Translations under genes and position numbers: made by a program
Shown: positions 425 to 46,176 of the stretch, one piece after another
Layout: the number at the start of each line of letters is the position of its first letter
Position numbering within the stretch: the stretch's first letter is position 1
Notes under the pieces: model-generated
What the model was told of the DNA's origin: nothing
The model's input: the letters and a program-made list of their open reading frames with translations, nothing else
Database searches by the model: none
Origin: an uncultured Lacinutrix sp.
GTDB taxonomy: Bacteria; Bacteroidota; Bacteroidia; Flavobacteriales; Flavobacteriaceae
Length of the DNA stretch: 64,000 bases
Assembly: GCF_947500325.1 (NCBI RefSeq)
Contig: NZ_CANMRQ010000001.1
Location: forward strand, 1 to 64,000
Reading direction: 5' to 3'

Positions 425-1537
425 ATGAATTTATCATATTGGGAAATAAAAACTTGGTTATATAACATTGACTATACTATCGTTGGTAGTGGTATAGTAG
501 GTTTAAACTGCGCTTTAAGTTTAAGACAACGCTTTCCTAAAGCTAAAATTCTTGTCCTAGAAAAAGGTATTCTTCCACAAGGAGCAAGTACAAAAAATGC
601 AGGTTTTGCATGCTTTGGTAGTCTTAGTGAAATTGTAAAGGATCTTAATTCCCACTCGGAAGAAGAAGTCTTTCATCTTGTAAAAAATCGTATAGAAGGT
701 CTCAATTTATTAAGAGAAACTCTTGGTGATAAGACCATAGATTATCAAAATAACGGTGGTTACGAGTTGTTTTTAAAGAAAAACGAATCTTTATTTAGTA
801 ATTGTTTAGACAAAAAAAACGCTGTTAACACATTACTTCAGCCTTTATTTAAACAAGATATTTTCAAATTGCAGGATAATCTTTTTGGTTTTAAAACTAT
901 AAAAGAGCAATCTATATTTAATTCTTTTGAAGGCCAAATAGATACTGGAAAAATGATGAATGCTTTACTTAATAAAGTACAAGCGCAAAACATTAAAATA
1001 TTAAATAATATAACAGTTGAAGCATTTTTAAATGAAGGACACTCTGTAAAACTAAAAACAAATGCATTTGAATTATCGACTTCAAAATTATTAATAGCTA
1101 CAAATGGTTTTGCTAAACAATTATTAAATGAAATTGTTGAACCAGCAAGAGCACAAGTATTAATTACAAAGCCAATTAAAAACTTACATATTAAAGGCAC
1201 TTTTCATTTAGATGAAGGCTATTATTATTTTAGAAATATTAATAATCAAATATTATTTGGAGGCGGAAGGCATTTAGCTTTTAAAACCGAAAACACAACA
1301 AATTTTGGTGAAACAGAGCTCATTCAGAATACATTAGAAATGCTTCTAAAAACAACCATCTTACCAGAAACCTCTTTCGAAATAGAGCATCGTTGGAGTG
1401 GTATTATGGGTGTTGGAAAACAGAAAAAACCAATAGTAAAACAAATAGACGACAATGTCTTTTGCGGTGTACGATTAGGTGGTATGGGAGTTGCTATAGG
1501 TAGTCTGGTTGGAAAACAATTAGCAGATTTAATATAA
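425..1537 (+). CDS. FAD-dependent oxidoreductase (DAO/glycine-oxidase-like)
   Basis: N-terminal Rossmann dinucleotide motif IVGSGIVGLNCAL; 370 aa. Confidence 0.65.
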   Translation: MNLSYWEIKTWLYNIDYTIVGSGIVGLNCALSLRQRFPKAKILVLEKGILPQGASTKNAGFACFGSLSEIVKDLNSHSEEEVFHLVKNRIEGLNLLRETLGDKTIDYQNNGGYELFLKKNESLFSNCLDKKNAVNTLLQPLFKQDIFKLQDNLFGFKTIKEQSIFNSFEGQIDTGKMMNALLNKVQAQNIKILNNITVEAFLNEGHSVKLKTNAFELSTSKLLIATNGFAKQLLNEIVEPARAQVLITKPIKNLHIKGTFHLDEGYYYFRNINNQILFGGGRHLAFKTENTTNFGETELIQNTLEMLLKTTILPETSFEIEHRWSGIMGVGKQKKPIVKQIDDNVFCGVRLGGMGVAIGSLVGKQLADLI

Positions 1538-1543
1538 TAAATT

Positions 1544-2227
1544 ATGAAAAAGCTCTTTCGTTTTTTATTAAAATCTTGCTTTTGGAGCATTGTGTTTTCT
1601 ATAAGCTTAGTAGTATTATTTAAATACATCCCTGTACCAATTACACCTTTAATGGTTATTCGCTATTACCAAGACGATGCTAATCGTAAGCTTTGGAAAC
1701 ATGATTGGACTCCAATAGAAAAAATCTCTAAAAACTTACAGTTAGCTGTTATTTCTAGTGAAGATCAAAAATTTATATCTCATAGTGGTTTCGACATAGA
1801 AGCTATAGAAAAAGCGTACGAGAATAATAAAAAAGGGAAACGTATAAAAGGCGCAAGTACTATTAGCCAACAAACGGCCAAAAATGTGTTTTTATGGCCA
1901 GAACGCAGTTGGCTTCGTAAAGGATTAGAAACGTATTTCACTTTTTTAATTGAGAAAATATGGAGTAAAGAACGCATTTTGGAAGTCTATTTAAATAGCA
2001 TAGAAATGGGAAACGGCATATATGGTGCTGAAGCTGCTACACAGTATTGGTTTAAAAAATCTTCAGCTAGTCTAACAGAATATGAAGCAGCTGCAATTGC
2101 TGCTATATTACCAAATCCAAAACAATACAAGGCTAATCCTGCATCTTCATATATTCAGAAAAGAAAGACATGGATTGTTAGACAAATGCATTTTTACGGA
2201 AAACTAGAATTTAAAGCTCAAAAATGA
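1544..2227 (+). CDS. mtgA: monofunctional biosynthetic peptidoglycan transglycosylase
   Basis: N-terminal TM helix plus GT51 motifs ISSEDQKFxxHxGxD and GASTISQQ; 227 aa. Confidence 0.8.
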   Translation: MKKLFRFLLKSCFWSIVFSISLVVLFKYIPVPITPLMVIRYYQDDANRKLWKHDWTPIEKISKNLQLAVISSEDQKFISHSGFDIEAIEKAYENNKKGKRIKGASTISQQTAKNVFLWPERSWLRKGLETYFTFLIEKIWSKERILEVYLNSIEMGNGIYGAEAATQYWFKKSSASLTEYEAAAIAAILPNPKQYKANPASSYIQKRKTWIVRQMHFYGKLEFKAQK

Positions 2228-2673
2228 ATTTAAAGGAAGAATTATATAATCAATGTTTAGTATTTATAGACAATCGGCTTATAACGGTTCAAAATACAAT
2301 GCAAGAAATTCAAGAGTCTTTGCTTTCAGAAACAAAAAGCTCTGCTGGAGACAAACATGAAACTGGTAGAGCTATGTTACAACTGGAGCGTGAAAAGGCC
2401 GGAAATCAGTTAGCAGAAATTAATAAAACAAAAGCTAACTTAGTAAAAATAAATATAGAAACTACTTCACAAAAAATACACCTTGGCAGCATTGTCTATA
2501 CAACGCAAGCGAATTATTTTATTGCAATAAGTGCTGGTATACTAACAGTTAAAAATGAAGTGTTTTATGCTATCTCTCCAAGTACTCCAATTGCTCAACT
2601 ACTATTATCTAAAACAAAAGGAGATAAAATAACCTTTAGAACAAATAACTTTAGCATTACTAAAGTTATTTAG
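2224..2673 (+). CDS. GreA/GreB-family-like factor (C-terminal FKBP-like domain)
   Basis: C-terminal SPSTPIAQLLLSKTKGDKITF resembles GreA SPLAxALLGKxxGD; 4-bp overlap with mtgA stop. Confidence 0.4.
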   Translation: MNLKEELYNQCLVFIDNRLITVQNTMQEIQESLLSETKSSAGDKHETGRAMLQLEREKAGNQLAEINKTKANLVKINIETTSQKIHLGSIVYTTQANYFIAISAGILTVKNEVFYAISPSTPIAQLLLSKTKGDKITFRTNNFSITKVI

Positions 2674-2693
2674 AATATAATTATCTTTAAAAG

Positions 2694-3239
2694 ATGATAA
2701 AGACTAAAAGTATATTCTTCTTTTTTACATTTTTATTTTTGATAGCAAACTATAGTTATTCCCAAAGTAATAATGATGTTAATACACATGTTACCGTAGA
2801 TTTTAAAATTAGAAACCTAGGGTTTAATGTAGATGGCTATTTTAAAGATACCAAAATGAATGTTCTATTTAACAAAAATGATTTAGCAAATAGTTCAATT
2901 TCTGGCAAAGTATCTGTAAAATCGATAAATACTGATATAGAAAAAAGAGACGAACATTTAAAACAAGAGGACTATTTTGATGCTAAAAAGTATCCATATA
3001 TTTTATTTAAATCTTCAAAAATCATATTTAAATCTGGAGACACTTATAATGTTACTGGAGAATTAACCATAAAAAATACTACTAAAGAAATCACCATTCC
3101 TTTTAAGATAAAAAACACAACATCTGGTCTTGAATTATCAACTTACTTTGAAATTAACAGACGAGATTATAAAGTAGGTGGTAGTAGTTTTGCTCTTTCT
3201 AACACAGCAAAAATATCGATTACCTATCTTAAAAAATAA
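2694..3239 (+). CDS. YceI-family periplasmic protein
   Basis: signal peptide plus YceI-like beta-barrel motifs (GELTIKNTTKEITIPFKI); 181 aa. Confidence 0.6.
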   Translation: MIKTKSIFFFFTFLFLIANYSYSQSNNDVNTHVTVDFKIRNLGFNVDGYFKDTKMNVLFNKNDLANSSISGKVSVKSINTDIEKRDEHLKQEDYFDAKKYPYILFKSSKIIFKSGDTYNVTGELTIKNTTKEITIPFKIKNTTSGLELSTYFEINRRDYKVGGSSFALSNTAKISITYLKK

Positions 3240-3244
3240 ATGTC

Positions 3245-4384
3245 TTGAATACTGAAGACTCATACTTTGATGTTATAATAGTTGGTGGTGGTTTAGCTGG
3301 ATTATCTTCAGCAATTCACTTATCAAAATTTAAGATTAAGGTATTAGTCATTGAAAAAAACACCTATCCAAAACATAAAGTCTGTGGCGAGTATATTTCT
3401 AATGAAGTATTGCCCTATTTAAAATTTCTAGATATTGATGTTTTTAAATATGATGCTCATAAAATCAACTCATTTGAATTAACAACAATAAAAAATAAAA
3501 TAATAAAAGTAAGGCTACCACTTGGTGGTTTTGGTATTAGTAGATATTGTTTAGATAATATACTAGCAAAAAAAGTATTAGAAAGTAATGTTGAAATATT
3601 AAAAGACGCTGTTGAAGATATTACATTTATTAATAAAACATTTTCAGTAAAAACAAAAAGCGACACAACATATAAAGCTAAACTAGTTATTGGTGCTTAT
3701 GGAAAACGTGCCAATCTTGATACAAAATTAAATCGTCAATTTATAAAAGAGAAATCACCCTTTCTAGCTGTAAAAATACATGCTACTGGAAACTTCCCTG
3801 ATAATCTAGTAGCATTACATAATTTTAAAGGCGGTTATTGTGGTGTTTCAAAAGTTGAAAATAATAAAATCAACATCTGTTATATTACTAACTATAATAC
3901 TTTCAAAAAACACAAAAACATTCAAGCATTTCAAAAAGAAATTCTTTATAAAAACGAGCATTTAAAATCTATTTTCAAAAACTCCACGTCGGTTTTTGAT
4001 GTCCCTTTAACAATAAGTCAGATTTCTTTTTTAAATAAAAAACCTGTAGAAAACCATGTGCTTATGTGTGGTGACACGGCAGGAATGATTCATCCGCTAG
4101 CAGGAAACGGCATGAGCATGGCTATTAGAAGTGCCCAAATAGTTTCATCCTTAATAATTGATTACCTTGATGGTAATATAAAATCAAGATATTTATTAGA
4201 AAAGCAGTACTCAATGCTTTGGAATAAAGAGTTTAAGAACAGAATAAATACTGGGAAATTTATTGCCTATTTGTTTAGCTTAAATATAGTATCGGAAATA
4301 ATTGTACTAATATTAAAGCCATTTCCAAAAGTATTGCAGTACATTATTAAACGTACGCATGGCAAAATCATGACTACATCATGA
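3245..4384 (+). CDS. FAD-dependent oxidoreductase/hydroxylase (geranylgeranyl-reductase / halogenase-like; SrsC-like position in cluster)
   Basis: DVIIVGGGLAGLSSA Rossmann motif, 379 aa, translationally coupled to methyltransferase. Confidence 0.65.
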   Translation: MNTEDSYFDVIIVGGGLAGLSSAIHLSKFKIKVLVIEKNTYPKHKVCGEYISNEVLPYLKFLDIDVFKYDAHKINSFELTTIKNKIIKVRLPLGGFGISRYCLDNILAKKVLESNVEILKDAVEDITFINKTFSVKTKSDTTYKAKLVIGAYGKRANLDTKLNRQFIKEKSPFLAVKIHATGNFPDNLVALHNFKGGYCGVSKVENNKINICYITNYNTFKKHKNIQAFQKEILYKNEHLKSIFKNSTSVFDVPLTISQISFLNKKPVENHVLMCGDTAGMIHPLAGNGMSMAIRSAQIVSSLIIDYLDGNIKSRYLLEKQYSMLWNKEFKNRINTGKFIAYLFSLNIVSEIIVLILKPFPKVLQYIIKRTHGKIMTTS

Positions 4385-5094
4385 GTTTATTAGTGAATAC
4401 AAAATATAGGACTAATGCAACAGAAATTATGGATGATTTCTCAATTAGCGGTACTATTTTACGAGACACTTTAAATAAAATCGATAATATTAATGCTTTT
4501 TTAGGTGGTAATAATGTTACTATTAATGGGCTTAAAAAGCTATTAAAAAACCATCCAAAAGAAAAACCAATAACCATTATAGATTTAGGTTCTGGTAGTG
4601 GTGATATATTAAGAAACGTAGCAAAACTGGGCAAAAGAGAAGGCTATGCTTTTAATTTAATTGGCATAGATGCCAATAAAGATACTACTGCTTATGCCAA
4701 CGAATTGTCTATTAACTATCCAGAAATTCAATTTCTAGATTATAATATTTTTTCAGAAACATTTAAATCATTAGAATTTGACATCGTATTGTCAACCTTA
4801 TTTTTACACCATTTTAAAGAAAATGAATTACATTCACTCTTATCTTATTTAATAAAAAAAGCAACAATAGGAATAGTTGTTAACGATTTACAAAGACATA
4901 AACTAGCCTATTATTTATTTAAATTACTATGCATACCTATAACAAACAAAATGGTTATTGAAGATGGATTAACTTCTATATTAAGAGGTTTTAAACGTAA
5001 AGAATTAGAATCTATTTCGACAAAAATAAATGCCAATTATGCAATAAAATGGAAATGGGCTTTTCGTTTTCAATGGATTCTTAAAAGAAAATAA
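4381..5094 (+). CDS. class I SAM-dependent methyltransferase
   Basis: motif I IDLGSGSGD; 237 aa; overlaps upstream stop by 4 nt and abuts the PKS start. Confidence 0.7.
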   Translation: MSLLVNTKYRTNATEIMDDFSISGTILRDTLNKIDNINAFLGGNNVTINGLKKLLKNHPKEKPITIIDLGSGSGDILRNVAKLGKREGYAFNLIGIDANKDTTAYANELSINYPEIQFLDYNIFSETFKSLEFDIVLSTLFLHHFKENELHSLLSYLIKKATIGIVVNDLQRHKLAYYLFKLLCIPITNKMVIEDGLTSILRGFKRKELESISTKINANYAIKWKWAFRFQWILKRK

Positions 5095-6147
5095 ATGAGT
5101 GTAAAAATAACAGCAGTAGCAAAACAATTACCTCAATATACTAGAGAAACTAAAGATATTATACCATATTTAAATAATTGGTTATCTGGGCAAGACGATC
5201 GTTTTAAAAGAAAGGTAATAAAGCTTTTTGAAAATGCAGGCGTAGAAAGACGTTACTCTATTATGGACGCTAAAGACGTTTTTACTAAAACATCATTTGA
5301 AGAGAAAAACGACATTTATTCTCGAGAAACCATTAAGCTAGCTGAAAAATCCCTAATAAAAGCACTAGATAAAGCAAAACTACAACCAACAGATATAGAC
5401 TATATTATTACGGTAAGCTGTACAGGTATTATGATTCCATCTGTAGATGCTTATTTAATAAATAGATTAAAAATGAAGCGTGATATTGTGAGACTACCTG
5501 TTACAGAAATGGGCTGTGCAGCTGGAGTTTCAGGAATTATTTACGCTAAGAATTTCTTAAAAGCAAACCCTAATAAACGTGCAGCCGTTATTGCTGTAGA
5601 ATCTCCAACAGCGACGTTTCAACTAGATGATTTTTCTATGGTAAATATTGTAAGTGCCGCTATTTTTGGAGATGGTGCTTCTAGCGTTATACTATCATCG
5701 TATAAAAGCGATAATGGACCAAAAATTATAGATGAAGCAATGTACCATTTTTACAATGCAGAGACTATGATGGGTTTTAAATTAGTAAATACTGGCTTAC
5801 AAATGATTTTAGATAAAGCTGTACCAGAAACTATTGCTGAACATTTTCCAAAAATAGTCCACCCTTTTTTAGAAAAAAACAATCTTACAATAGAAGCTAT
5901 AAATCATCTTATTTTTCATCCTGGCGGTAAAAAAATTGTACAAACTGTAGAAGCTCTTTTTGGAGTTTTAGGTAAAAACATTGACGATACAAAAGAAGTT
6001 CTTAAATTGTATGGAAATATGAGTAGCGCTACTGTTTTATATGTTTTAGAGCGTTTTATGGACAAACAATTACCAAAAGGAGATAAAGGATTAATGTTAA
6101 GTTTTGGCCCAGGTTTTTCTGCACAACGCATACTTTTAGAATGGTAA
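5095..6147 (+). CDS. type III polyketide synthase (chalcone/stilbene synthase family; SrsA/ArsB-like)
   Basis: N-terminal LFENAGVERRYSIMD (type III PKS signature not found in FabH), active-site MGCAAG, C-terminal GFGPGFSAQRILLEW; 350 aa. Confidence 0.75.
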   Translation: MSVKITAVAKQLPQYTRETKDIIPYLNNWLSGQDDRFKRKVIKLFENAGVERRYSIMDAKDVFTKTSFEEKNDIYSRETIKLAEKSLIKALDKAKLQPTDIDYIITVSCTGIMIPSVDAYLINRLKMKRDIVRLPVTEMGCAAGVSGIIYAKNFLKANPNKRAAVIAVESPTATFQLDDFSMVNIVSAAIFGDGASSVILSSYKSDNGPKIIDEAMYHFYNAETMMGFKLVNTGLQMILDKAVPETIAEHFPKIVHPFLEKNNLTIEAINHLIFHPGGKKIVQTVEALFGVLGKNIDDTKEVLKLYGNMSSATVLYVLERFMDKQLPKGDKGLMLSFGPGFSAQRILLEW

Positions 6148-6254
6148 AATCTCGATTAACTTTACACTGTTAAAGCTCTGGACTAAACAGGAACTAAATA
6201 TCATATTGAGCTAGCAGGAACTTTAAACAATCGAAGTGTCATTAAAATAAATAT

Positions 6255-7061
6255 TTGAATAAAGTAATGAAAGAATTTCAAGATAAAAACTATTGGGCAA
6301 TTATTTTAGGCGGTTCTAGCGGATTAGGTTTAGCTACTGCAAAAAAATTGGCAAAGCACGGTATGAATATTTGTGTTGTCCATCGTAATGCCAGAGCACA
6401 TTCTGAAATATTTAATGCAGAATTTGATAAAATTAAAGCTGAAGGCATACTATTTAAATCTTATAACATTGATGCTTTTAAAGTTGAAAAACGAAACCGA
6501 ATTATTTCAGAATTAAAAGAGGTTTTAGGAACTAAAGGTAAAGTAAGAACACTTATTCATAGTGTTGCTAAAGGCAATTTGAAACCTATGGTAGATACCG
6601 AAAACCCAACTCTTACTAACGACGATTTTCATTTAACACTTAACGCAATGGCTATTAGTTTGTACGATTGGACTAAAGCGGTTTTTGAGGCCCAATTATT
6701 TGCGGAAGATGCAAGAGTACTCTGTTTTACAAGTGAAGGAAGTTCAAGAGCATGGAAAAGTTATGCTGCCGTTTCTGCCGCAAAAGTAACCTTAGAAGCC
6801 CTTTCAAGAAATATAGCACTAGAGTTTGCTCCTTTTGGTATTAGAGCAAATTGTATACAAGCTGGTGTTACAGACACCTTATCTTTTCGAATGATCCCTG
6901 GAAGCGATAAACTTAAAGAACATGCATTATCGCGAAGTCCCTTTAATCGTTTAACACAGCCTGAAGATGTTGCTAATGCTGTGTATTTATTAAATAAAGA
7001 TGAAGCCAGCTGGATTAACGGTTGTGTAATTCCTGTTGATGGCGGCGAACATATTAGTTAA
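6255..7061 (+). CDS. SDR-family ketoreductase (FabG-like)
   Basis: ILGGSSGLGLATAKKLAKHG cofactor motif, 268 aa. Confidence 0.75.
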   Translation: MNKVMKEFQDKNYWAIILGGSSGLGLATAKKLAKHGMNICVVHRNARAHSEIFNAEFDKIKAEGILFKSYNIDAFKVEKRNRIISELKEVLGTKGKVRTLIHSVAKGNLKPMVDTENPTLTNDDFHLTLNAMAISLYDWTKAVFEAQLFAEDARVLCFTSEGSSRAWKSYAAVSAAKVTLEALSRNIALEFAPFGIRANCIQAGVTDTLSFRMIPGSDKLKEHALSRSPFNRLTQPEDVANAVYLLNKDEASWINGCVIPVDGGEHIS

Positions 7062-7063
7062 AC

Positions 7064-7516
7064 ATGACTGGAAAACAAATCATAAAACTATTACCTTATC
7101 AACAACCTTTTCTATTCGTTGACGAGCTAACGACTATCTCAAACGAAAGTATTACTGGGCATTACACCTTTAAAAAAGATGAGTATTTTTACCAAGGTCA
7201 TTTTAAAGATAATCCTATTACACCTGGTGTTATTTTAACAGAATGTATGGCACAAATTGGTGTTGTTTGTTTAGGAGTTTTCATGCTAAAAGATGAACTT
7301 TCTGAAGTTAATCTTCCACAAATAGTATTAACGTCTAGTCAAATAGATTTCTTTTTACCGGTTTATCCAGAAGAAAAAGTAACAGTTATTTCTGAAAAAG
7401 AAGTCTTTCGTTTTAATAAATTGAAATGCAACGTAAAGCTTTTTAATGAAAGAAAAGAATTGGTTTGTCGTGGAAAAATTTCCGGAATGATGAAGATAGG
7501 ACAAAGCGATATATAA
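7064..7516 (+). CDS. hotdog-fold 3-hydroxyacyl-ACP dehydratase (FabZ/FabA-like)
   Basis: 150 aa, HFKDNPITPGVILTE hotdog catalytic motif. Confidence 0.65.
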   Translation: MTGKQIIKLLPYQQPFLFVDELTTISNESITGHYTFKKDEYFYQGHFKDNPITPGVILTECMAQIGVVCLGVFMLKDELSEVNLPQIVLTSSQIDFFLPVYPEEKVTVISEKEVFRFNKLKCNVKLFNERKELVCRGKISGMMKIGQSDI

Positions 7517-7596
7517 TAGTTAATTTGTCACACTGAGTTTGTTGAAGTGTTATATTAAAAATAATTAATAAGATTCCCGCTTTCGCGGGAAATGCT
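7517..7596. repeat. composite intergenic element: TGTCAC-ACTGAG...TTGAAG motif plus CCCGC-TTTC-GCGGG hairpin immediately before the start codon
   Basis: same two-part architecture recurs at 8869-8950; related motif at 57941-58030 and (minus orientation) 43729-43760. Confidence 0.5.
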
Positions 7597-8868
7597 ATGA
7601 AAAATAGAGTCGTCATCACAGGTTTAGGAGTTGTAGCACCAAATGGTGTTGAAATCGATGCGTTTTTAAAAGCCATTAAAAATGGAGATTCTGGTATTAC
7701 GTTTCATCAAAATTTAAAAGATTTAGAATTCTCCTGTTGCATTGGTGGTATTCCAGAAATTTCTGAAGAAAAAAAACTAAACTATCTAACACCTTTACAA
7801 CTTCGCAATTTTAACAGTAATGGTATTTTATACGGCTGTATTGCAGGAATAGACGCTTGGAAAGATGCTGGATTAAGCATAGATAAAGACAGTGAGTTAG
7901 ATTTTAATAGTGGAACTATATTTGGCACCGGAACATCCGGAGTAGAAAAATTTAGAGAAGCTATTTACAAACTAGACGATAAACAAGTGAAGCGTTTAGG
8001 AAGCACCGTTGTTGTTCAAACTATGGCCAGCGGGATTAGTGCATTTTTAGGAGGAATATTGGGTTTAGGTAATCAAGTGACAACGAATTCTTCTGCCTGT
8101 ACAACAGGCACCGAAGCTATCTTAATGGGTTATGAACGCATAAAAAACGGACACGCAAAACGTATGCTGGTTGGTAGTTGTAGTGACGATGGCCCATACA
8201 TTTGGGGCGGATTTGATACTATGCGAGTCATGACCTATAAACATAATAATACTCCAAAAAAAGGCTCCAGACCAATGAGTGTTTCTGCTAGTGGATTTGT
8301 TCCTGGAAGTGGCGCAGGTGCTTTAGTTTTAGAAAGTTTAGAAAGTGCTTTAGATCGTAAAGCTACCATTTATGCCGAAATTATTGGAGGTAATATAAAC
8401 TCTGGCGGACAACGCAATAATGGTACCATGACAGCGCCAAATCCAGAAGCTGTACAACATTGCATAAAAAACGCTATTAAAGATGCTCAAATTAAAGCTA
8501 AAGATATAGATACTATAAATGGGCATTTAACTGCTACATCAAAAGATACTTTAGAAATTGAAAATTGGTCAAAAGCTTTAAACCTAAACAGAAACGATTT
8601 TCCATACATAAATTCATTAAAATCTATGGTTGGTCACTGTTTAGCAGCAGCCGGTAGTATTGAAAGCGTAGCTACAGTATTGCAAATTAAAAATCAGTTT
8701 TTGTTTCCCAATATAAATTGTGAAGATTTACATCCTGGAATTTCGGCATTAATTTCTGAAGAAAAAGTAGTTAAACAATTAATGCATACAACAATAAACA
8801 TAGCAGCAAAAGCTAGTTTTGGTTTTGGTGATGTTAATGCTTGTGTTATCTTTAAAAAGTATAATTGA
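7597..8868 (+). CDS. beta-ketoacyl-ACP synthase (KAS I/II family)
   Basis: active-site SSACTTGTEAI, 423 aa, thiolase fold. Confidence 0.8.
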   Translation: MKNRVVITGLGVVAPNGVEIDAFLKAIKNGDSGITFHQNLKDLEFSCCIGGIPEISEEKKLNYLTPLQLRNFNSNGILYGCIAGIDAWKDAGLSIDKDSELDFNSGTIFGTGTSGVEKFREAIYKLDDKQVKRLGSTVVVQTMASGISAFLGGILGLGNQVTTNSSACTTGTEAILMGYERIKNGHAKRMLVGSCSDDGPYIWGGFDTMRVMTYKHNNTPKKGSRPMSVSASGFVPGSGAGALVLESLESALDRKATIYAEIIGGNINSGGQRNNGTMTAPNPEAVQHCIKNAIKDAQIKAKDIDTINGHLTATSKDTLEIENWSKALNLNRNDFPYINSLKSMVGHCLAAAGSIESVATVLQIKNQFLFPNINCEDLHPGISALISEEKVVKQLMHTTINIAAKASFGFGDVNACVIFKKYN

Positions 8869-8950
8869 GATGTCATGCTGAGCGCAGTCGAAGCATCTCA
8901 ACAAAAAATAAGTTTAATTAAAAAGATTTCCACTTTCGCGGAAAGTAAAC
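8869..8950. repeat. composite intergenic element: TGTCATGCTGAGCGCAGTCGAAGCAT motif plus TTCCAC-TTTC-GCGGAA hairpin before the ACP start
   Basis: paralogous to 7517-7596. Confidence 0.5.
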
Positions 8951-9205
8951 ATGACAAAAGACCAATTAATAGCCAAACTAAAAAGTATTGTAGAACCCTA
9001 TATACAGAACGAAGAAGCATTTAATAATTTATCGGAAAACACAGATTTTATTAATGACTTAAAAATAAACTCTGCTAATTTAGTTGATGTTGTATTAGAT
9101 GTTGAAGATGAGTTTGATATTCGTATAGAAAACGATGATATGGAAAAAATGATATCTGTAAAAACAGCAATGGACATTATTAATGAAAAATTGAATGCTA
9201 AATGA
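8951..9205 (+). CDS. acyl carrier protein (dedicated, cluster-associated)
   Basis: 84 aa acidic four-helix protein with phosphopantetheine-attachment serine region DLKINSANLVDVV. Confidence 0.7.
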   Translation: MTKDQLIAKLKSIVEPYIQNEEAFNNLSENTDFINDLKINSANLVDVVLDVEDEFDIRIENDDMEKMISVKTAMDIINEKLNAK

Positions 9206-9786
9206 TTGGCAACGACATTGTCGATTTAAACTATGCCGCTAAACATTCTCCCTATAGTAATAGTAAAAGATACCAACGTTTTCTAGATAAAGTTTTCACT
9301 AAAAAAGAACAACTACTTATTTTTAATGCTGAAGATAAACACCAAATGGTTTGGCTGCTTTGGAGTATGAAAGAAGCTGCCTATAAAGTAAATGTACAAC
9401 AGTTTGGGAAGCAGTTTTATAACCCAAAACGCATTGATTGCAAATTGCTTAATGACAAAAAAGGGCAAGTTATTATTGATGAAAACCTATATTTTACTGA
9501 GTCAATAATTACTGATGATTTTAGTCACTCTATTGCGACCTTAGAAGGTGAAACTGACTTTAAAAGCGAATGGTTTAAAGTTGAAAAATTGGATTATAAA
9601 ACACAAAGTAAAATGCTAAAATATTCTTTTCTAAAATTAATATCTGAAACCAAAGGATTTAATATTCAAACTTTGAGCATTAAAAAAACAGAGGTAGGTA
9701 TTCCTAAATTATTTAATGAATCTAAAAAACTGTGTATTGATTTTTCTTTGTCACATTGTGGCGAGTTTTCCGGGTTTGTTTTTTAA
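9202..9786 (+). CDS. 4'-phosphopantetheinyl transferase
   Basis: MIGNDIVDL N-terminus, 194 aa, overlaps ACP stop by 4 nt. Confidence 0.6.
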   Translation: MIGNDIVDLNYAAKHSPYSNSKRYQRFLDKVFTKKEQLLIFNAEDKHQMVWLLWSMKEAAYKVNVQQFGKQFYNPKRIDCKLLNDKKGQVIIDENLYFTESIITDDFSHSIATLEGETDFKSEWFKVEKLDYKTQSKMLKYSFLKLISETKGFNIQTLSIKKTEVGIPKLFNESKKLCIDFSLSHCGEFSGFVF

Positions 9787-16641: not shown

Positions 16642-18129
16642 ATGCTTAAAAACATCTTATTTAAAATCATCAAATTTTCTAAAAACTTATTTTTTATTAA
16701 ACGATTAGTGGCTCTAGCTATACTTGCTTTTATTATTTATATGTTTAGTGGCGATTTACTATTTATGTCTAAAGCTAAAAAATTAGAACCTGTAAAAGCA
16801 AAAAATATTTTAAATACTAAAGAAACACAAAAATACATGTTGCTTTCAGATTATAAAATAGATTGTAACTATCCATTTATGGTAAAAAAGGTATTTAAAA
16901 AAGATAAAATAAGTCACTTTTATTTGCCGCTTGTTAGTCTAGATAAGCCAAAAGAGATTATTGCTCTAATTAGTGAAAATGCAATAAAAGATAGTACAAT
17001 ATTAAAAACAGAAAGTTATGCTGCTAAAGTGAATTTAGCGCAAAACTATTTTGAAAAAGACATCGAGACTAAATTGTTAAATGGAGAAAAAGAGTTTTAC
17101 ATAAAAAACGGTTTTCAATTTTCAGATACTTTTATGCAGTTAAAAATAGATGCGCCACCAACAGCTTTTGGTAGATATTTAATAGCTGTTATTATAGCTT
17201 CACTTTTATTCTTACTACTTTTAATATCATTCATTCCTAATAAAATTTTAAGTAAATGGTTTAATCAGTATACTGGAATTGATTATAGTTTTGGAAATAA
17301 AACCATTAAAAAAATCGTAAAAAATGTTGAGTATGGTAAATACAATACTGCATTAGAACAAATAAAAGCGTTAACAGCAGACCAAAAAACGCAAGCCATA
17401 GATGCTTTAGCTTTAATGCTAAAAGAGAAGCAGATGCAAAAGTGGAAAAAAGCTGAAGGTAATTCTGCTTTTTTCAAATTAGTTGATGGCAGCAGACAGA
17501 TCTATGACGCATGGGAAAAACGCGGTTACGCTTATGCAACTGAAACAGATGAAGATAGTGCTTTAGGTTTTCTTGAATTACTTGAAAAAGGAAAAAGAAC
17601 ACTTAGTCAAGTACAAGGTTTTTTAAAGGTCGATGCCAATAATTTATTAATAAGCGTTAATAAAGGCTTAAGTGAAAAAGAAGTTTGTAAAAGAGCGTTT
17701 CAAGACTGTATATCTGCCGAGCCTAAACATACTATGGCACATTTAAATTATTTAGATGTAATATTACCTAAATGGCTTGGAAGTGAAGAAGAAGTCGATG
17801 CTTTTATTATAGAACATTCTAAAAAATCTACTTTTTTAGAATGTATATTAAAGGCAAAATGGCTTCATGAGAAAGTAAATTATAACGAAGAAGAAAATTA
17901 TACAAACGAGATTGAATCTTATTTAAATACCTTCGAGCCTCAAATACATCAATTAAAAACCGATAGTCCAAATAAATATATTCTTTATAATTACTTATAC
18001 TTTTTAGCAGATGAAGTTGGAAATAAAAAACTATCTAAACGCTACGAGAAAAAATTAAAAGAGTATTTGTCACCAACACTATATTCTCCCTTACGTTCTG
18101 CTGAAGAGATAAAACGTAAGTTAGGTTAA
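16642..18129 (+). CDS. hypothetical membrane protein
   Basis: 495 aa, two TM segments, no recognisable domain. Confidence 0.45.
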   Translation: MLKNILFKIIKFSKNLFFIKRLVALAILAFIIYMFSGDLLFMSKAKKLEPVKAKNILNTKETQKYMLLSDYKIDCNYPFMVKKVFKKDKISHFYLPLVSLDKPKEIIALISENAIKDSTILKTESYAAKVNLAQNYFEKDIETKLLNGEKEFYIKNGFQFSDTFMQLKIDAPPTAFGRYLIAVIIASLLFLLLLISFIPNKILSKWFNQYTGIDYSFGNKTIKKIVKNVEYGKYNTALEQIKALTADQKTQAIDALALMLKEKQMQKWKKAEGNSAFFKLVDGSRQIYDAWEKRGYAYATETDEDSALGFLELLEKGKRTLSQVQGFLKVDANNLLISVNKGLSEKEVCKRAFQDCISAEPKHTMAHLNYLDVILPKWLGSEEEVDAFIIEHSKKSTFLECILKAKWLHEKVNYNEEENYTNEIESYLNTFEPQIHQLKTDSPNKYILYNYLYFLADEVGNKKLSKRYEKKLKEYLSPTLYSPLRSAEEIKRKLG

Positions 18130-18362
18130 TAGCTTATTTAACTTTCTTTATAATTAGTTCAAAATAGTATAAAGTATTGCCTTACTAAGGAAAATTATTA
18201 ATGCACAGTATAAATAAATATCAGATTATTCTGTAACATTTATATCTACAGTGACACATATCTATAGTTAGCATTAATAATGATAGTAAAATTAAAAACT
18301 TTACCAATATTGTTTCTACATAACTGCTATTAAAAATCTATAATCTAAAAACACTAAATCTA

Positions 18363-19106
18363 TTGAGAGCTATTATTGACATTGCTTTTTCTTCTGTAAA
18401 TATTATACTAAGCCTGTTAGTTATTTTATTAATACTATACTGGCTATTTACAATGATTTCTGGAATTGATTTCGATTTAGATATCGACGTAGATGTAGAT
18501 ATTGATGTTGATGCAGATGTTGACGTAGATATTGATACTGCTACTTCTATTACAGACCTTGCTAATGCAGAAATTAATAAAGAGGATGTTCTTAAATACA
18601 ATAGAAAAAACCTAGAATGGTGGCAAATAGTATTACTCTATTTTAACTTTGTAGGCTTACCATTTATGTTCACATTTACATGCTGGATTTTTATATGGTG
18701 GTTATGTACTGTAATTTCTACAAGCATTACAGAATCGTATAACACTAGTTTTGGTTATACATTACTTTTAATAGGTATCGTTCCCTCGTTATTTTTAACT
18801 AAAATTTTTACAACACCATTTAAAGGCTTTTTTAAGAATTTGAATCCCGATGGAGATTTACCAATAAATTTAGCAGGTAGAAAAGGAGTTATGCTATCAA
18901 AAATTTCTGGTGATAAAATGGGATCTGCAGAAGTTGTAGCGAAAGGAAACCCCATGTCTGTCTATGCAAAATCATTTGGAGGTGAAACAATTAATTATAA
19001 ACAAACTATTATTGTTGTTAAACAGTCTGATGACAAAAATTTTTACTGGGTTTTCCCTTATGTAGAAGATGAAGAAAATCCCACTAGACTAGATGAAACC
19101 AATTAA
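18363..19106 (+). CDS. NfeD-like membrane protein (YqiJ-like) with acidic DVDID repeat
   Basis: TM helices plus C-terminal OB-fold-like region; immediately upstream of flotillin, as in yqiJ-yqiK. Confidence 0.6.
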   Translation: MRAIIDIAFSSVNIILSLLVILLILYWLFTMISGIDFDLDIDVDVDIDVDADVDVDIDTATSITDLANAEINKEDVLKYNRKNLEWWQIVLLYFNFVGLPFMFTFTCWIFIWWLCTVISTSITESYNTSFGYTLLLIGIVPSLFLTKIFTTPFKGFFKNLNPDGDLPINLAGRKGVMLSKISGDKMGSAEVVAKGNPMSVYAKSFGGETINYKQTIIVVKQSDDKNFYWVFPYVEDEENPTRLDETN

Positions 19107-19151
19107 AAAACATTATAAACATTAACTTAAATAAAAACTAAATAGTAATTT

Positions 19152-21218
19152 ATGGAAAACGTCACGCAATTTATTGGAATAGGAATAGGGCTTATTCTTT
19201 TTTTAATCGTAATTTATTTTGCAATTATTGCCCTATTTTATAAAAAAGTCCCTCAAGGAGAAGCTTTAGTAAGAACGGGATTTAAAGGTACAAAAGTAGC
19301 AACAGATAAAGGTTTGTATGTAGTCCCTGTATTTCATAAAGTAGAAATCATGGATATTTCTGTAAAGAAAATTCAAATTGAGCGTATTGCAGAAAATGGC
19401 TTATTATGTAAAGATAACATGCGTGCCGATATTAAAGTGGCTTTTTTTGTACGCGTAAATAATGAAGTAGATTTTATTAAAAAAGTAGCACAAACAGTAG
19501 GTTGTGAACGTGCTTCAGATATTTCAACTTTAGAAGAACTTTTCGAGGCTAAATTCTCTGAAGCTCTAAAAACGGTTGGAAAAAAATTCAACTTTGTAGA
19601 GTTATATGAAGCGCGTAGAGAATTTCGTGATGAAATTGTTGATATTATTGGTACCGATCTTAATGGTTATACACTTGAAGATTGTGCCATCGATTATTTA
19701 GAGCAAACCGCTGTTCAATTTTTAAAGTCTGATAATATTCTTGATGCAGAAGGTATCAAAAAAATTACCGAATTGACTGCTGAACAAAACATGAAAGCAA
19801 ACCTTATTAAGCGTGATGAAGAAAAAGTAATTCGTAAGCAAGATGTAGAAGCACGTGAAGCTATTTTAGAGTTAGATAAACAATTAGCCGAAAAAGAAGA
19901 ACAACAAAAAAGAGAGATTGCAAACATAAAAGCACGTGAAGGAGCAGAAACATTAAAAGTTGCCGAAGAAGAACGCCTAAAATCTGAAAGTGCTAGAATA
20001 GCTACTGAAGAAAAAGTAAAAGTAGCCGAAGAGAATATGGCACGTCAAATTATAGTCGCTGCTAAAAACAAGCAACGTACAGATGCCGTAGAAACAGAAC
20101 GTGTAGAAAAAGACAGAATGTTAGAAGCTACAGAAAGAGAACGCATAGTTACTTTAGCTCAAATTGAAAAAGAAAAGGTCGTTGAAGTTGAAAAGAAAAA
20201 CATTCAAGATGTTATTCGCGATAGAGTAATGCTGGAAAAAGGTGTTATAGAAGAGCAAGAAAACATGAAGGATATTCAAGCTTTTAAAACAGCCGATAGA
20301 GATAAACAAGTAAAAATAACGGTTGCAGAAGCTAATGCACAGGAAGACTTAATAAAAACTATAAAAGCTGCGGAAGCCGAAAAAGAAGCAGCAAAACAAA
20401 AAGCAGAAGAAATAAATATAGAAGCAGAAGCAAAGAAACAAGCCAGTCAAAAAGAAGCAGAAGCAAGAAAAACATTGGCAGAAGCTACAGCTAAGGAAGA
20501 AGCTACAAAAGGTTTATCTGAAGCTCAAGTATTACATGCTAAAGCTGAGGCTAATGAGCGTCAAGGTAAAGTAGAGGCTTTAATTATTGAGGAAAAAGCA
20601 AAAGCTGAGGCAGCAGGTATTTTAGCAAAAGCGGAAGCTATAAAAGAACAAGGTATCGCAGAAGCAGAAGTAATAAAAGAGCAGGCTTTAGCAGAAGCTA
20701 TAGGTATTGAAGAAAAAGCTAATGCCATGAAAAAACTAGATGGTGTAGGTAAAGAGCATGAAGAATTCAAACTACGTTTAGATAAAGAATTACAAGTAGA
20801 TTTAGCCGAAATTAATATTCAAAAAGAGATTGCAGATGCTCAAGCAAATGTAATTGGAGAAGCACTTAAAGCAGCTAATATTGATATTGTTGGTGGAGAA
20901 ACCATGTTCTTCGATCAAATTATTGGACAAATCACTAAATCTAAAGGTATAGATCGTTTGGTGAATCATTCAGATAATATTACTCAGGTAAAAGATGCTA
21001 TTCTGGGAAGTGACGATGTTAAGGGTAATCTTTTAGATAAAGTAAAAGAGTTTGCAACTAAATATGGGATCACTTCAGAAGATATTAAAAACCTAACTGT
21101 AGCTAACTTATTAATAGATTTAAAATCTAAAACTACAGATGCTAGTGAATCAAATCTATTTGATAATCTTGCAAACCTTGCAAAAGGATTAGGCTTATCT
21201 GATAAAAAATTAGGGTAA
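19152..21218 (+). CDS. flotillin / SPFH (band-7) family protein (YqiK-like) with long E/A/K coiled-coil
   Basis: N-terminal TM, SPFH domain, about 300 aa of EAxAK coiled-coil repeats; 688 aa. Confidence 0.8.
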   Translation: MENVTQFIGIGIGLILFLIVIYFAIIALFYKKVPQGEALVRTGFKGTKVATDKGLYVVPVFHKVEIMDISVKKIQIERIAENGLLCKDNMRADIKVAFFVRVNNEVDFIKKVAQTVGCERASDISTLEELFEAKFSEALKTVGKKFNFVELYEARREFRDEIVDIIGTDLNGYTLEDCAIDYLEQTAVQFLKSDNILDAEGIKKITELTAEQNMKANLIKRDEEKVIRKQDVEAREAILELDKQLAEKEEQQKREIANIKAREGAETLKVAEEERLKSESARIATEEKVKVAEENMARQIIVAAKNKQRTDAVETERVEKDRMLEATERERIVTLAQIEKEKVVEVEKKNIQDVIRDRVMLEKGVIEEQENMKDIQAFKTADRDKQVKITVAEANAQEDLIKTIKAAEAEKEAAKQKAEEINIEAEAKKQASQKEAEARKTLAEATAKEEATKGLSEAQVLHAKAEANERQGKVEALIIEEKAKAEAAGILAKAEAIKEQGIAEAEVIKEQALAEAIGIEEKANAMKKLDGVGKEHEEFKLRLDKELQVDLAEINIQKEIADAQANVIGEALKAANIDIVGGETMFFDQIIGQITKSKGIDRLVNHSDNITQVKDAILGSDDVKGNLLDKVKEFATKYGITSEDIKNLTVANLLIDLKSKTTDASESNLFDNLANLAKGLGLSDKKLG

Positions 21219-21280
21219 TTATATATAATTCACTTGCTTGTTTAAGTAACAGGTGAGTGAATTAAATCTTTTAATAATTA

Positions 21281-21748
21281 GTGTCAAAATTTAAGGTCAT
21301 TTTAATTGTTATTCTATCTGCAATAGTAATCTATTTAGTAGATAATATATTCTTAAAAGAAGAATACCTAAAGGGAGTTGTTATAGAAAAAAGGTACCAA
21401 GATAAAATGATTATTACTGGGACAAGTAATAATACTCGAACAGGACATTCTGTTGTAAATACTCCAACTTATGATCCTAATGGCTATAGATTAATTATTA
21501 AAGATAAAAATGATAATCAAATAGTGATAAGGAGTAACTCTGATATTTATACCAAAGCTTACAAAGGTGACTCTGTAAAATATCGTGTATCAAAAGGGCT
21601 TTTTTCTAGAAAAATATGGAAAGCTTCCATTGTTGAAATAATACCAAATTTTGAATACAGAAAACAATTTTTAAATAAAAAACTATCACCACTAGAAAAG
21701 CTCCTTAAAACAAAAGGTGATTTTAACAAAAAAGAATATGACAAGTAA
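21281..21748 (+). CDS. small membrane-anchored hypothetical protein
   Basis: N-terminal TM, 155 aa, between flotillin and giant ATPase gene. Confidence 0.4.
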   Translation: MSKFKVILIVILSAIVIYLVDNIFLKEEYLKGVVIEKRYQDKMIITGTSNNTRTGHSVVNTPTYDPNGYRLIIKDKNDNQIVIRSNSDIYTKAYKGDSVKYRVSKGLFSRKIWKASIVEIIPNFEYRKQFLNKKLSPLEKLLKTKGDFNKKEYDK

Positions 21749-21768
21749 TTTCCCTAAAAGGAAAAACT

Positions 21769-29841: not shown

Positions 29842-30537
29842 TTACAAAAAAGGTTCTAAAAAACCTATTAGCGATTTATCGTATTTGGACCATCGTATAC
29901 CATGGCCACTTTTTATTCTTATTTCAAAAACAATTTCATGTTTGTAATGATAAAACGTATTCCACCATGTATGATTATCTATTATATTATTTATAATGCC
30001 TTTTACTTTATCTAATTTTTGTTGTGGAGAACCTTTAATTTCTCCCCAAAAGGAATCTTCTGTTCTATCAATATGTTTTTCCCAAGCACGAACACCAACA
30101 CTAATTTGCTTATTATAATGACTCAAGCTATTGTCTAGCATCTCTTTTTTGGTCATTGGCAAACCTTCTACAGTTTTTATTGTTGCGGGCGTTTGTCGTT
30201 GCCCCATTAATAAAAGAACATGCTCAAAAGACACGCTTTGTATTGTACTGCAAATTATGTTTTTATTTATTACGTCGGAGACAAAATCTCGTTTATTAAT
30301 TTCTGAAATTGCATGTTTAAAAAATGAAAAAGAACCTTCTAAATTAGGAGCTATTTCTTCTGAAAAATAAGGGAATTGTACATTTTTTGACACACCATAT
30401 TTATGAAAATTAATACAGTTCTTTGAAAAAACACGTAGATAGTCTTCATGAAAAAACATAGAATTAACTGTTAACCAATCTTTTGAAAAAAGATCTTTTG
30501 AATCTAATAGTAGTTGTGTTAATAGAGTTGCTTTCAC
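29842..30537 (-). CDS. hypothetical protein
   Basis: 231 aa, no motif recognised. Confidence 0.4.
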   Translation of the reverse strand: MKATLLTQLLLDSKDLFSKDWLTVNSMFFHEDYLRVFSKNCINFHKYGVSKNVQFPYFSEEIAPNLEGSFSFFKHAISEINKRDFVSDVINKNIICSTIQSVSFEHVLLLMGQRQTPATIKTVEGLPMTKKEMLDNSLSHYNKQISVGVRAWEKHIDRTEDSFWGEIKGSPQQKLDKVKGIINNIIDNHTWWNTFYHYKHEIVFEIRIKSGHGIRWSKYDKSLIGFLEPFL

Positions 30538-31592: not shown

Positions 31593-32335
31593 TGTATTTC
31601 TTTTAAGAAGAATGCATTAAATTCTTCAGGATTCGGCTTTTTATTAATTAAGTCGTTTTTAATACTATTATTTTCTGTAACAATATCTCTAACTAATGTA
31701 ATTAAAGTGTTGCTAACAGGTTCTGTACTTTTTTCAATATGTTTACTTTTTAAATGAATTAAATCATTTAATATAGTATGGTATTTCTCATCAATTATTG
31801 GGTACAATTCCGTGAACAAAACTGGCGGAATAGTTTCGTTTTTATAAACCCAATTAGCACACAAAGCAGTTCTTATGGCGTAGAAAAAACTTTTTAGCGT
31901 CATTTTATCTGTATCTAGTGTTTCTTCAAAACGGTAGCTCATACTATGGTAATGATAAAAACCAGATACAGGATTAAAGTTGTTTTCTGCCAAAGTTCTA
32001 ATTTCTTTTAAAAAATCGCCATTCGCTCTATACACAATAGGAGAAAATAACCAGCCTAAAAAAGACGCATTAGATTTTGCTAATAATTTTAAAGCTTTGC
32101 GAAATTCCCAACCAGAGCCATCAAGATCGTCTTCTGTCATGAACTCAATAGTATCTTTTTGTTCCCAAAGGTTTAAATACCACTCTTTTTTATGTTTATA
32201 TACAAAACGGATATCGTAATCTGAATCTGGTGACTCAAATCCCCAAGCTCTACTTCCAGATTCTACCGCAAATAGTATGTCTATATTTTTGTCTTTCTCT
32301 ATTTCAGAAAGTTTTTCTAGTATTTTAGTTTTCAT
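31589..32335 (-). CDS. Pol-beta-superfamily minimal nucleotidyltransferase (paralog of 30534-31592)
   Basis: ESGSRAWGFESPDSDYDIRFV motif; 248 aa. Confidence 0.55.
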   Translation of the reverse strand: MKTKILEKLSEIEKDKNIDILFAVESGSRAWGFESPDSDYDIRFVYKHKKEWYLNLWEQKDTIEFMTEDDLDGSGWEFRKALKLLAKSNASFLGWLFSPIVYRANGDFLKEIRTLAENNFNPVSGFYHYHSMSYRFEETLDTDKMTLKSFFYAIRTALCANWVYKNETIPPVLFTELYPIIDEKYHTILNDLIHLKSKHIEKSTEPVSNTLITLVRDIVTENNSIKNDLINKKPNPEEFNAFFLKEIQ

Positions 32336-35105: not shown

Positions 35106-36568
<1,463 letters not shown>

Positions 36569-45992: not shown

Positions 45993-46176
45993 ATTCTATT
46001 TTTATTAGAGTTTAAATCATAATCTACTCTTTAAAAAAGATACAAAACGTCCTTCTTGGGGATTCAGTAAAATAACTGCTCCTCTATAATCGCATTCACT
46101 AAAGCGCGATATTGCTTGTTTATGTATTTCTTGTTTTATCATAATTATTTCCCACGAAAGTGGGAATCTGTTTTAT

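Follow-up and report, generated by a model that had tools for sequence, protein, structure and literature searches.

What does a bacterial operon make in which a type III polyketide synthase (PKS) stands next to a set of enzymes acting on acyl carrier protein (ACP)-bound chains, and does the one part serve the other? This question is raised by positions 3245-9786 of a 64,000-nucleotide (nt) stretch of DNA from an uncultured Lacinutrix sp. (positions 1-64,000, hereafter the window). Eight co-directional open reading frames (ORFs) on the plus strand fill these positions, and the ORF list together with Pfam and NCBIfam matches predicts the following products (lengths in amino acids, aa):

3245..4384, + strand, flavin adenine dinucleotide (FAD)-dependent oxidoreductase (flavoenzyme), 379 aa; FAD_binding_3 / geranylgeranyl (GG)-reductase-like flavoprotein
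4381..5094, + strand, class I S-adenosylmethionine (SAM)-dependent methyltransferase (MT), 237 aa; Pfam Methyltransf_25/31/11
5095..6147, + strand, type III PKS, 350 aa; Chal_sti_synt_N and Chal_sti_synt_C
6267..7061 (TTG alternative 6255), + strand, FabL-type enoyl-ACP reductase (ER) of the short-chain dehydrogenase/reductase (SDR) type, 264 aa; SDR, FabL best match
7064..7516, + strand, FabZ-like 3-hydroxyacyl-ACP dehydratase (DH), hotdog fold, 150 aa; Pfam FabA
7597..8868, + strand, ketoacyl-ACP synthase I/II (KAS I/II)-like elongating beta-ketoacyl-ACP synthase (KS), 423 aa; Pfam ketoacyl-synt N and C
8951..9205, + strand, divergent dedicated ACP, 84 aa; NCBIfam ACP models, below cut-off
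9202..9786, + strand, 4'-phosphopantetheinyl transferase (PPTase), 194 aa; Pfam ACPS

A conserved flavobacterial operon around a type III PKS

An earlier note on this DNA had listed eight genes in this order, with tight spacing except before the SDR, KS and ACP genes. Both the list and the spacing were borne out, apart from the function given to the SDR. The flavoenzyme gene starts 5 nt after an upstream gene for a YceI-family protein and shares a 4-nt overlap with the MT gene, which abuts the PKS gene (0 nt). The SDR and DH genes are 2 nt apart, and the ACP and PPTase genes overlap by 4 nt. The wider gaps are those between PKS and SDR (119 nt if the SDR starts at its annotated ATG, 6267, and 107 nt if it starts at the TTG, 6255), DH and KS (80 nt) and KS and ACP (82 nt). 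RefSeq gene calls for the uncultured Lacinutrix sp. agreed at all nine starts looked up, a set that did not include the PKS start, and the full-length PKS is 100% identical to the RefSeq entry 'type III polyketide synthase [uncultured Lacinutrix sp.]'. In a relative whose PKS is 61% identical (locus L081), the neighbouring genes from MT through PPTase all overlap, by 4-11 nt. Positions 3245-9786 thus hold a single operon, conserved in marine Flavobacteriaceae and comprising seven to eight genes.

Family and structure matches identify the window PKS as a genuine chalcone synthase (CHS)-like type III PKS, as the earlier note had called it, and not as a FabH- or DarB-type enzyme. The two Pfam domains Chal_sti_synt_N and Chal_sti_synt_C scored 70.9 and 74 bits (gathering cut-off 27), and the best 60 PDB matches consist entirely of type III PKSs, headed by Mycobacterium tuberculosis Pks11 (8e-50) and followed by THNS and by CylI at 1.7e-44. 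NCBIfam models of KS III enzymes remained far below their cut-offs, including DarB (27.9 bits, cut-off 550), StlD/DarB (27.6, cut-off 450) and fabH (70.5, cut-off 292). The catalytic triad Cys141/His275/Asn308 aligns to that of Pks11 and, like Phe228 and Met237, is invariant across 81 sequences.

In a one-genome-per-species collection, at least 561 genomes were found to encode a relative. Conservation was measured in the best 80 loci, which were chosen by PKS similarity, so that the figures are meaningful for comparison between genes alone. By label or recognised genus name, 78 of the 80 loci belong to Flavobacteriaceae (genera such as Psychroserpens, Lacinutrix, Gelidibacter, Winogradskyella, Polaribacter, Tenacibaculum, Aquimarina, Lutibacter and Algibacter); one further locus is from a Flavobacteriales metagenome-assembled genome and one from Cytophagales. 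The order flavoenzyme-MT-PKS-(ER)-DH-KS-ACP-PPTase is retained among them. Presence was counted in 60 loci with full flanks: KS, ACP and PPTase genes were found in 60/60, and flavoenzyme, MT and DH genes each in 59/60. Median identity to the window over the 80 loci was 82.6% for the PKS, 76% for the KS, about 71% for ACP, DH and ER, about 60% for flavoenzyme and MT and 36% for the PPTase; the adjacent DAO and transglycosylase (MTG) genes reached about 68%. Of all operon genes, that of the PKS is conserved best (80-90% identity) and that of the PPTase least, by far. In the chromosome of Lacinutrix neustonica HL-RS19 (locus L010, 8109-13909), the matches to the flavoenzyme, MT, DH and KS genes are each split over two reading frames, a sign of frameshifts; either this copy of the cluster is decaying or the assembly contains indel errors.

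Relatives outside this group come from a library clustered at 50% identity, in which the next full-length representatives are 61%, 45% and then at most 42% identical to the window PKS:

P0122 (L081), 61%: operon MT-PKS-SDR-DH-KS-ACP-PPTase as in the window, overlapping genes
P0123 (L082), 45%: PKS-YceI-146 aa-flavoenzyme-MT; flavoenzyme homologous to that of the window, E 1e-16
P0127, 42%: flavoenzyme and UbiE-type MT, divergent from the PKS
P0129 (L086), 39%: PKS-flavoenzyme; flavoenzyme homologous to that of the window, E 1e-17
P0130 (L087), 38%: PKS-MT

Neither a flavoenzyme nor an MT gene adjoins the PKS in P0125 and P0131, and the contigs of P0126 and P0128 are too short to judge the context. 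The outgroup PKSs with flavoenzyme and/or MT neighbours (38-45% identity) have no fatty acid synthase (FAS) genes beside them, and the MT of L082 is not significantly similar to that of the window. It appears that the FAS-type genes were added specifically in the flavobacterial lineage. The representative library also held a predicted protein of 4818 aa (P0121) with 12 separate type III PKS-like stretches of 25% identity, which is probably a fused gene model across a tandem CHS-like array.

The functions of the ACP-dependent enzymes were examined by family scores, structure matches and conservation of catalytic residues. The SDR had previously been called a ketoreductase (KR), a call that fails. 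Its best NCBIfam model is FabL (142 bits, equivalog cut-off 328) rather than FabG (108 bits), both below cut-off, and its best PDB match is Bacillus subtilis FabL (3oic, 6e-24), with which the catalytic Tyr and Lys align. Its signature is Tyr170-x6-Lys177 (Y170AAVSAAK177, numbered from the TTG at 6255), and Ser160, Tyr170 and Lys177 are conserved in 65 sequences. YxxxK motifs of the FabG type occur in it solely at residues 137 and 244, off the aligned catalytic site. The motif and the FabL matches exclude a KR and point to a FabL-type enoyl-ACP reductase, a relative of FabL but not its equivalog. Its gene was detected in 48 of the 60 full-flank loci; direct inspection of loci without it, in Polaribacter and some Winogradskyella, found the DH gene directly after the PKS gene, sometimes at 4 nt, with no space left for another. 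This reductase is an accessory, dispensable member of the operon.

The remaining members retain their expected residues. The DH matched FabA in Pfam (53 bits), FabZ in NCBIfam (67 bits, below cut-off) and FabZ structures in the PDB (about 1e-10) with an aligned HF..P..PGV..E motif; none of 76 sequences deviates at its His46 or Glu60. For the KS, both fabF (270 bits) and FabB (237 bits) scored under their NCBIfam cut-offs and FabB/FabF were the best PDB matches (1e-52); its elongating triad Cys168/His310/His347 is invariant in 74 sequences. The ACP scored 37-45 bits with NCBIfam models (below cut-off) and 20.1 with Pfam PP-binding (cut-off 20.8), and Ser41 within its motif NSANLVD is invariant in 72 sequences. 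The PPTase matched Pfam ACPS with 43.6 bits over residues 2-96, and its Asp5, Asp8, Lys57 and Glu58 are invariant in 72 sequences; this enzyme presumably activates the private ACP. The ACPS catalytic domain is N-terminal and a weak AASDHPPT_N-like match (residues 136-190) is C-terminal, the reverse of the usual Sfp-type order.

A 'private type II FAS set', as the operon had been described, is therefore present in part: it does encode ACP-dependent enzymes, but its gene set has no KR, no malonyl-CoA:ACP transacylase and no FabH, and because of these absences it is unable to complete an elongation cycle alone.

Of the two tailoring enzymes, the MT matched NCBIfam PRK06202 over its full length (135.6 bits, under the cut-off of 243), and its SAM motif D68-x-G70-x-G72 is invariant in 76 sequences. 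The flavoenzyme has FAD_binding_3 as its best Pfam match; in NCBIfam, the geranylgeranyl-reductase family came first (104 bits, below cut-off) and the ring hydroxylases LodB, QhpG and UbiH next. Its AlphaFold model, built with 38 orthologues in the alignment, had a predicted local distance difference test (pLDDT) score of 82.6. Together, these data establish the gene content of the operon, its intact catalytic residues, its operon-like linkage and its conservation across Flavobacteriaceae.

A proposed phenolic lipid and the competing explanations

What such an operon makes has to be read from analogy. We consider it moderately probable that the product is a tailored long-chain phenolic lipid, i.e. 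a methylated and hydroxylated alkylresorcinol (quinone) of the type made by Srs, Hid and Pkq systems, with an Ars-like feed of acyl-ACP. Each chemical step, the hand-over from ACP to PKS, the mode of cyclisation and the final product are inferred here. At first, the PPTase would convert the private ACP to its holo form. The KAS I/II-like KS would then extend an ACP-bound acyl primer with malonyl units, the FabZ-like DH and, where present, the FabL-like ER would process the chain, and housekeeping FabG and FabD would lend ketoreduction and malonyl loading. In the third step, the acyl chain would move from the ACP to Cys141 of the PKS, which would add malonyl-CoA units; an aldol condensation would be the most likely mode of cyclisation, with a 5-alkylresorcinol or an alkylresorcylic acid as its product. 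We propose feeding by acyl-ACP because Ars and CylI take carrier-bound starters. The MT and the flavoenzyme would subsequently methylate and hydroxylate the ring to give a product of the alkyl-methoxy-hydroquinone/benzoquinone type, and within the envelope the lipid may be carried by the linked YceI protein of the periplasm.

One residue bears on the mode of cyclisation. In Ars, a bulky residue at the position of ArsB Trp281 favours aldol cyclisation (PMC6274091). We mapped Phe228 of the window PKS to ArsB Trp281 / ArsC Gly284 via the 'MGW' alignment of Pks11 and a shared +9 spacing (Met237 / ArsC Met293); ArsC itself was not among the best 60 PDB matches. This position is aromatic in 128 of 136 aligned sequences (the window PKS and its 135 nearest representatives) and invariant within the clade. 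Phe228 is taken as a weak hint toward aldol cyclisation and a resorcinol, and only as a hint because the Trp281 rule fails for DquA, which has Trp there and yet makes pyrones only (PMC9827899).

Besides DquA, several observations weigh against the proposed resorcinol pathway. The mapping of Phe228 to ArsB Trp281 is indirect, based on spacing and on the Pks11 alignment instead of a direct alignment to ArsB, and the best solved relative, Pks11, is an alkylpyrone producer. The top family and fold matches of the flavoenzyme are GG-reductases and halogenases, not classical phenol hydroxylases. The FAS set lacks a KR and an acyltransferase (AT), and the ER is missing in some genera; the contribution of KS and DH is consequently unclear. 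The likeness to Srs, Hid and Pkq is one of gene content, in which the MT and the flavoenzyme are putative counterparts of SrsB/SrsC, HidA/HidB or PkqB/PkqC. A full-text literature search found no paper that characterises the flavobacterial cluster, its product or its coupling to FAS enzymes.

The most serious alternative, which we regard as unlikely, is that the PKS yields long-chain alkylpyrones (tri- or tetraketide lactones, cf. Pks11, ArsC, BpsA and DquA), that the MT makes pyrone methyl ethers and that the flavoenzyme has a different role. The relationship to Pks11 favours it, and, given DquA, an aromatic residue at the ArsB-281 position is no guarantee against it. On the other hand, BpsAB and DquAB are two-gene loci with a membrane ICMT-type MT and no flavoenzyme (PMC9827899), whereas the window MT is a soluble class I enzyme and the flavoenzyme gene accompanies the PKS in nearly all loci, as in resorcinol-to-quinone systems.

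A second alternative concerns the flavoenzyme, which might be a GGR/MenJ-like reductase of C=C bonds in the side chain, or a halogenase, instead of a ring hydroxylase, so that the end product would be no quinone. We think this rather doubtful. Halogenation is rejected because the enzyme has a single Trp (W326) and hence no WxWxIP motif, and has no conserved Lys after the GE motif (position 60 is variable among the 38 orthologues). Against a C=C reductase stand the best Pfam match, FAD_binding_3, and the quinone-cofactor ring hydroxylases LodB and QhpG that follow in the NCBIfam ranking. Moreover, the flavoenzymes located beside type III PKSs in Streptomyces griseus srs and Mycobacterium smegmatis pkq act with an MT to convert alkylresorcinol to benzoquinone (PMC9927152). 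By analogy with Srs and Pkq, a putative aromatic-ring hydroxylase of a phenolic lipid is the probable function and is favoured over a C=C reductase.

It is also conceivable, with low probability, that the KS, DH, ER, ACP and PPTase form a separate lipid module which is merely a neighbour of the PKS and makes, for example, a special fatty acid for another envelope lipid. The fact that a set without KR and AT cannot act alone, the 80-120 nt gaps of the window, which could house internal promoters, and the outgroup PKS clusters that do without such genes were counted in its favour. However, the module accompanies the PKS in 59-60 of the 60 full-flank loci across many genera and is joined to it by a 4-nt gap in Winogradskyella or by overlapping codons in L081, and mobile palindromes, missing from other loci, account for the gaps of the window.

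Finally, a flexirubin/dialkylresorcinol (DarAB, aryl polyene (APE)) locus can safely be dismissed: it shares with the window the general theme of a resorcinol-type lipid in Bacteroidota, and one orthologous DH has a faint ApeI-like Pfam hit, but the PKS is CHS-like with its far sub-cut-off DarB score, and no DarA/DarB, no KS and chain length factor (KS-CLF) pair and no flexirubin or APE gene was present among the Pfam-scanned window ORFs (all of at least 70 aa to 16 kb and all of at least 150 aa beyond, bar three), in line with the earlier suggestion of a phenolic-lipid pathway apart from the flexirubin route.

A bolder version of the resorcinol pathway, which we offer as speculation with little weight, is that the operon would be the first type II FAS / type III PKS hybrid, in which a partial, KR-less acyl-ACP line passes a special chain, very long or otherwise unusual, straight to the PKS, and that an alkyl-methoxy-benzoquinone as end product would act in the membrane as a second electron carrier, of higher potential, or as an antioxidant, a role analogous to that of mycobacterial polyketide quinones. 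By chemotaxonomy, menaquinone-6 is the sole quinone known from marine Flavobacteriaceae. Across genera, the PKS retains 80-90% identity, close to the conservation of a housekeeping gene, which is in keeping with a function in physiology more than with one as an antibiotic. Flavobacteriaceae play a key part in the breakdown of marine algal biomass. With a PKS conserved as strongly as a housekeeping gene, the lipid is a concrete and testable target, whether it acts as a quinone of the membrane, as an antioxidant or as part of the envelope.

Spacers, linked genes and the rest of the window

The gaps before the KS and ACP genes had been described as repeat-bearing, and palindromes are indeed present in both (no strand is assigned to them):

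7571..7591, palindromic repetitive extragenic palindromic (REP)-like element AGATTCCCGCTTTCGCGGGAA in the DH-KS spacer; 7-bp GC-rich hairpin
8872..8944, pair of REP-like palindromes in the KS-ACP spacer: GTCATGCTGAGCGCAGTCGAAGCAT (8872-8896) and AGATTTCCACTTTCGCGGAAA, a degenerate one (8924-8944)

They are not a feature of the operon. The 7571-7591 palindrome has three copies in the window, where chance would give none: itself, the copy at 8924-8944 with 3 mismatches and a third on the minus strand at 46149-46169. In the 80 orthologous loci, the same spacers hold other palindromes or none, and the distance between KS and ACP genes varies from 3 to 1249 nt. Because of the distant third copy and the varying presence across orthologous loci, these palindromes are generic flavobacterial elements inserted in the spacers, outside the mechanism of the operon, and a role as operon-specific regulatory elements was rejected.

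The palindrome, AGATTCC(C/T)..TTTC..GGGAA, shows compensatory stem changes among copies (CCCGC/GCGGG, CCCAC/GTGGG, CCCGT/ACGGG) and also occurs in loci L001, L009, L015, L020 and L038. The AGATTCC...GGGAA hairpin ends 5-6 nt ahead of the ATG at the KS and ACP starts of the window and in several other loci; at the 46149 copy, the ATG after the palindrome starts merely a 41-codon ORF.

RNA folding of two of the three spacers was no better than that of shuffled sequences, and an Rfam search gave nothing relevant. Sigma-70-like sites did not exceed their frequency in shuffled sequences. Occurrences of the Bacteroidetes -7 motif TAnnTTTG were fewer than expected by chance, and none lies on the plus strand of the spacers; the closest one upstream, at 3185-3192, falls within the 3'-terminal part of yceI and precedes the flavoenzyme start by 53 nt. 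A strong bidirectional terminator-like hairpin (352-385, 15 bp, 6 GC pairs) lies between an OmpA-family gene and the DAO gene. Plus-strand terminator hits at 3517 and 6864 are weak stems of 5-6 bp within coding sequence. Since no strong plus-strand terminator was predicted from the 352-385 hairpin through the PPTase gene, the genes at 425-9786 may form one long transcription unit.

Three genes within this interval lie upstream of the operon:

425..1537, + strand, DAO-family FAD oxidoreductase, 370 aa; Pfam DAO 129.5 bits
2224..2673, + strand, GreA-like small protein, 149 aa; weak GreA C-terminal match
2694..3239, + strand, YceI-family lipid-binding protein with signal peptide, 181 aa; Pfam YceI 108 bits

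All three co-travel with the cluster, even when relocated to its opposite side. The YceI gene remains near after rearrangement, being upstream in the window and 3' of the PPTase gene in Polaribacter, and the outgroup PKS in L082 is also trailed by a YceI gene. One planctomycete-related type III PKS operon encodes a lipid/isoprenoid-binding protein (PMC10896814). The YceI protein, a candidate carrier for the product, probably belongs with the cluster. The DAO gene is present in 47/60 full-flank loci, directly upstream of the cluster flavoenzyme gene in Polaribacter, and is possibly associated as well.

The GreA-like gene is found on either side of the cluster in 51/60 full-flank loci; as read from the sequence, the N-terminal half of its product resembles a coiled coil, and the C-terminal part carries the motif ISPSTPIAQLLLSKTKGDKI. 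RefSeq labels this 149-aa protein '3-oxoacyl-ACP synthase' (WP_299883150.1), and no thiolase-fold match was found for it. The 146-aa gene adjoining the PKS of L082 was considered as its counterpart and rejected, as the two are not homologous.

Farther downstream, the window contains a dense RNA-repair or defence-like island (28478-56578, mostly minus strand), which also encodes an R2K ATP-grasp protein and a PcfJ-like protein, besides:

30534-32335, island mostly minus, two RlaP nucleotidyltransferases
32325-33779, island mostly minus, PolyA_pol/CCA-adding-like and HD protein
35106-36506 and 49993-51384, island mostly minus, two RtcB ligases
41934-42929, island mostly minus, Rnl2-like RNA ligase
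43036-43521, island mostly minus, RNase H-like protein
47212-47787, island mostly minus, RNase T-like protein
48712-49407, island mostly minus, RF-1-domain protein beside an RtcB
54857-56578, + strand, WYL-WCX-PhyH regulator

Between the operon and this island, a 1629-aa protein (21769-26658, plus strand) combines DUF3686 ('ATPase involved in DNA repair'), DUF7902 and AAA_5. Upstream of it, in the region 16642-26658 (plus strand), ORFs of 495, 247 and 688 aa had no Pfam match, and the same stretch has a further ORF of 155 aa. The module at 16642-26658 looks like a defence or repair system.

Comparison with known systems

Srs, Pkq, Hid and planctomycetal operons have been characterised as sources of 5-alkylresorcinols, which undergo methylation and, in Srs and Pkq, hydroxylation to benzoquinones (PMC10896814, PMC8086630, PMC9927152). 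Like SrsABC of S. griseus, PkqABC of M. smegmatis and Streptomyces sp. MNU77 and HidABC of cyanobacteria, the window has a type III PKS, a SAM-dependent MT and an FAD oxidoreductase in one operon, and the same three gene types are found together in the planctomycetal MT-oxidoreductase-T3PKS operon (PMC10896814). The nearest outgroup PKSs, with their flavoenzyme and/or MT neighbours, show this arrangement too. The likeness to SrsABC drawn in the earlier note stands in this operonic combination but not in gene order, which is flavoenzyme-MT-PKS in the window and PKS-MT-hydroxylase in SrsABC. In addition, the MT family may differ from that in Srs/Hid/Pkq-type operons. Unlike these operons, the window adds five ACP-dependent genes (ER, DH, KS, ACP and PPTase).

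In this respect, the window resembles ArsABCD of Azotobacter vinelandii, in which dedicated FAS-type machinery is encoded beside a type III PKS. The Ars logic, which had also been invoked, holds for the ACP-dependent fatty-acid-type enzymes next to the PKS and not for the type I FAS: whereas Ars relies on the large type I FAS ArsA, the window has discrete type II enzymes without KR and AT, and no multidomain synthase was found among the operon genes. ArsD is likewise part of the Ars type I FAS. In Ars, the acyl chain goes directly from the ACP of the ArsA synthase to the PKSs ArsB/C (PMC6274091). Ars has two PKSs, and the same review mentions no MT or hydroxylase for it (PMC6274091).

Carrier-bound starters are also known from cylindrocyclophane biosynthesis, in which the type III PKS CylI finishes a resorcinol from a chain bound to a carrier protein (CylH to CylI; PMC8086630). 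CylI is related to the window PKS, as noted above; unlike the window, the upstream enzymes of Cyl are type I PKS modules and its product is a paracyclophane. The FtpA-E system of Myxococcus xanthus reportedly uses a stand-alone ACP to deliver a fatty acyl starter to a type III PKS, and its operon is said to contain an MT and its ACP to be loaded by a fatty acyl-AMP ligase. The window cluster differs from Ftp in having no ligase and in having KS, DH and ER. DarAB of the flexirubin pathway makes a resorcinol lipid in the same phylum by means of DarB, a FabH-like KS III of a different enzyme family.

In Flavobacteriaceae genomes, 'T3PKS' has been reported as the second (PMC7440613) or fourth (PMC10734526) commonest cluster class, and the flavobacterial T3PKS products have been termed 'likely novel type III polyketides' (PMC9323603). 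No report of a product was found for any of these clusters. Zobelliphol from Zobellia was described as a dialkylresorcinol and was not tied there to a type III PKS. The existence of the cluster has thus already been counted in genome-mining papers; its product and its coupling to FAS enzymes are new. If the proposed pathway is true, the known modes of feeding a type III PKS, i.e. by a type I FAS (Ars), by an acyl-AMP ligase and ACP (Ftp) and by a type I PKS (Cyl), would be joined by a type II system.

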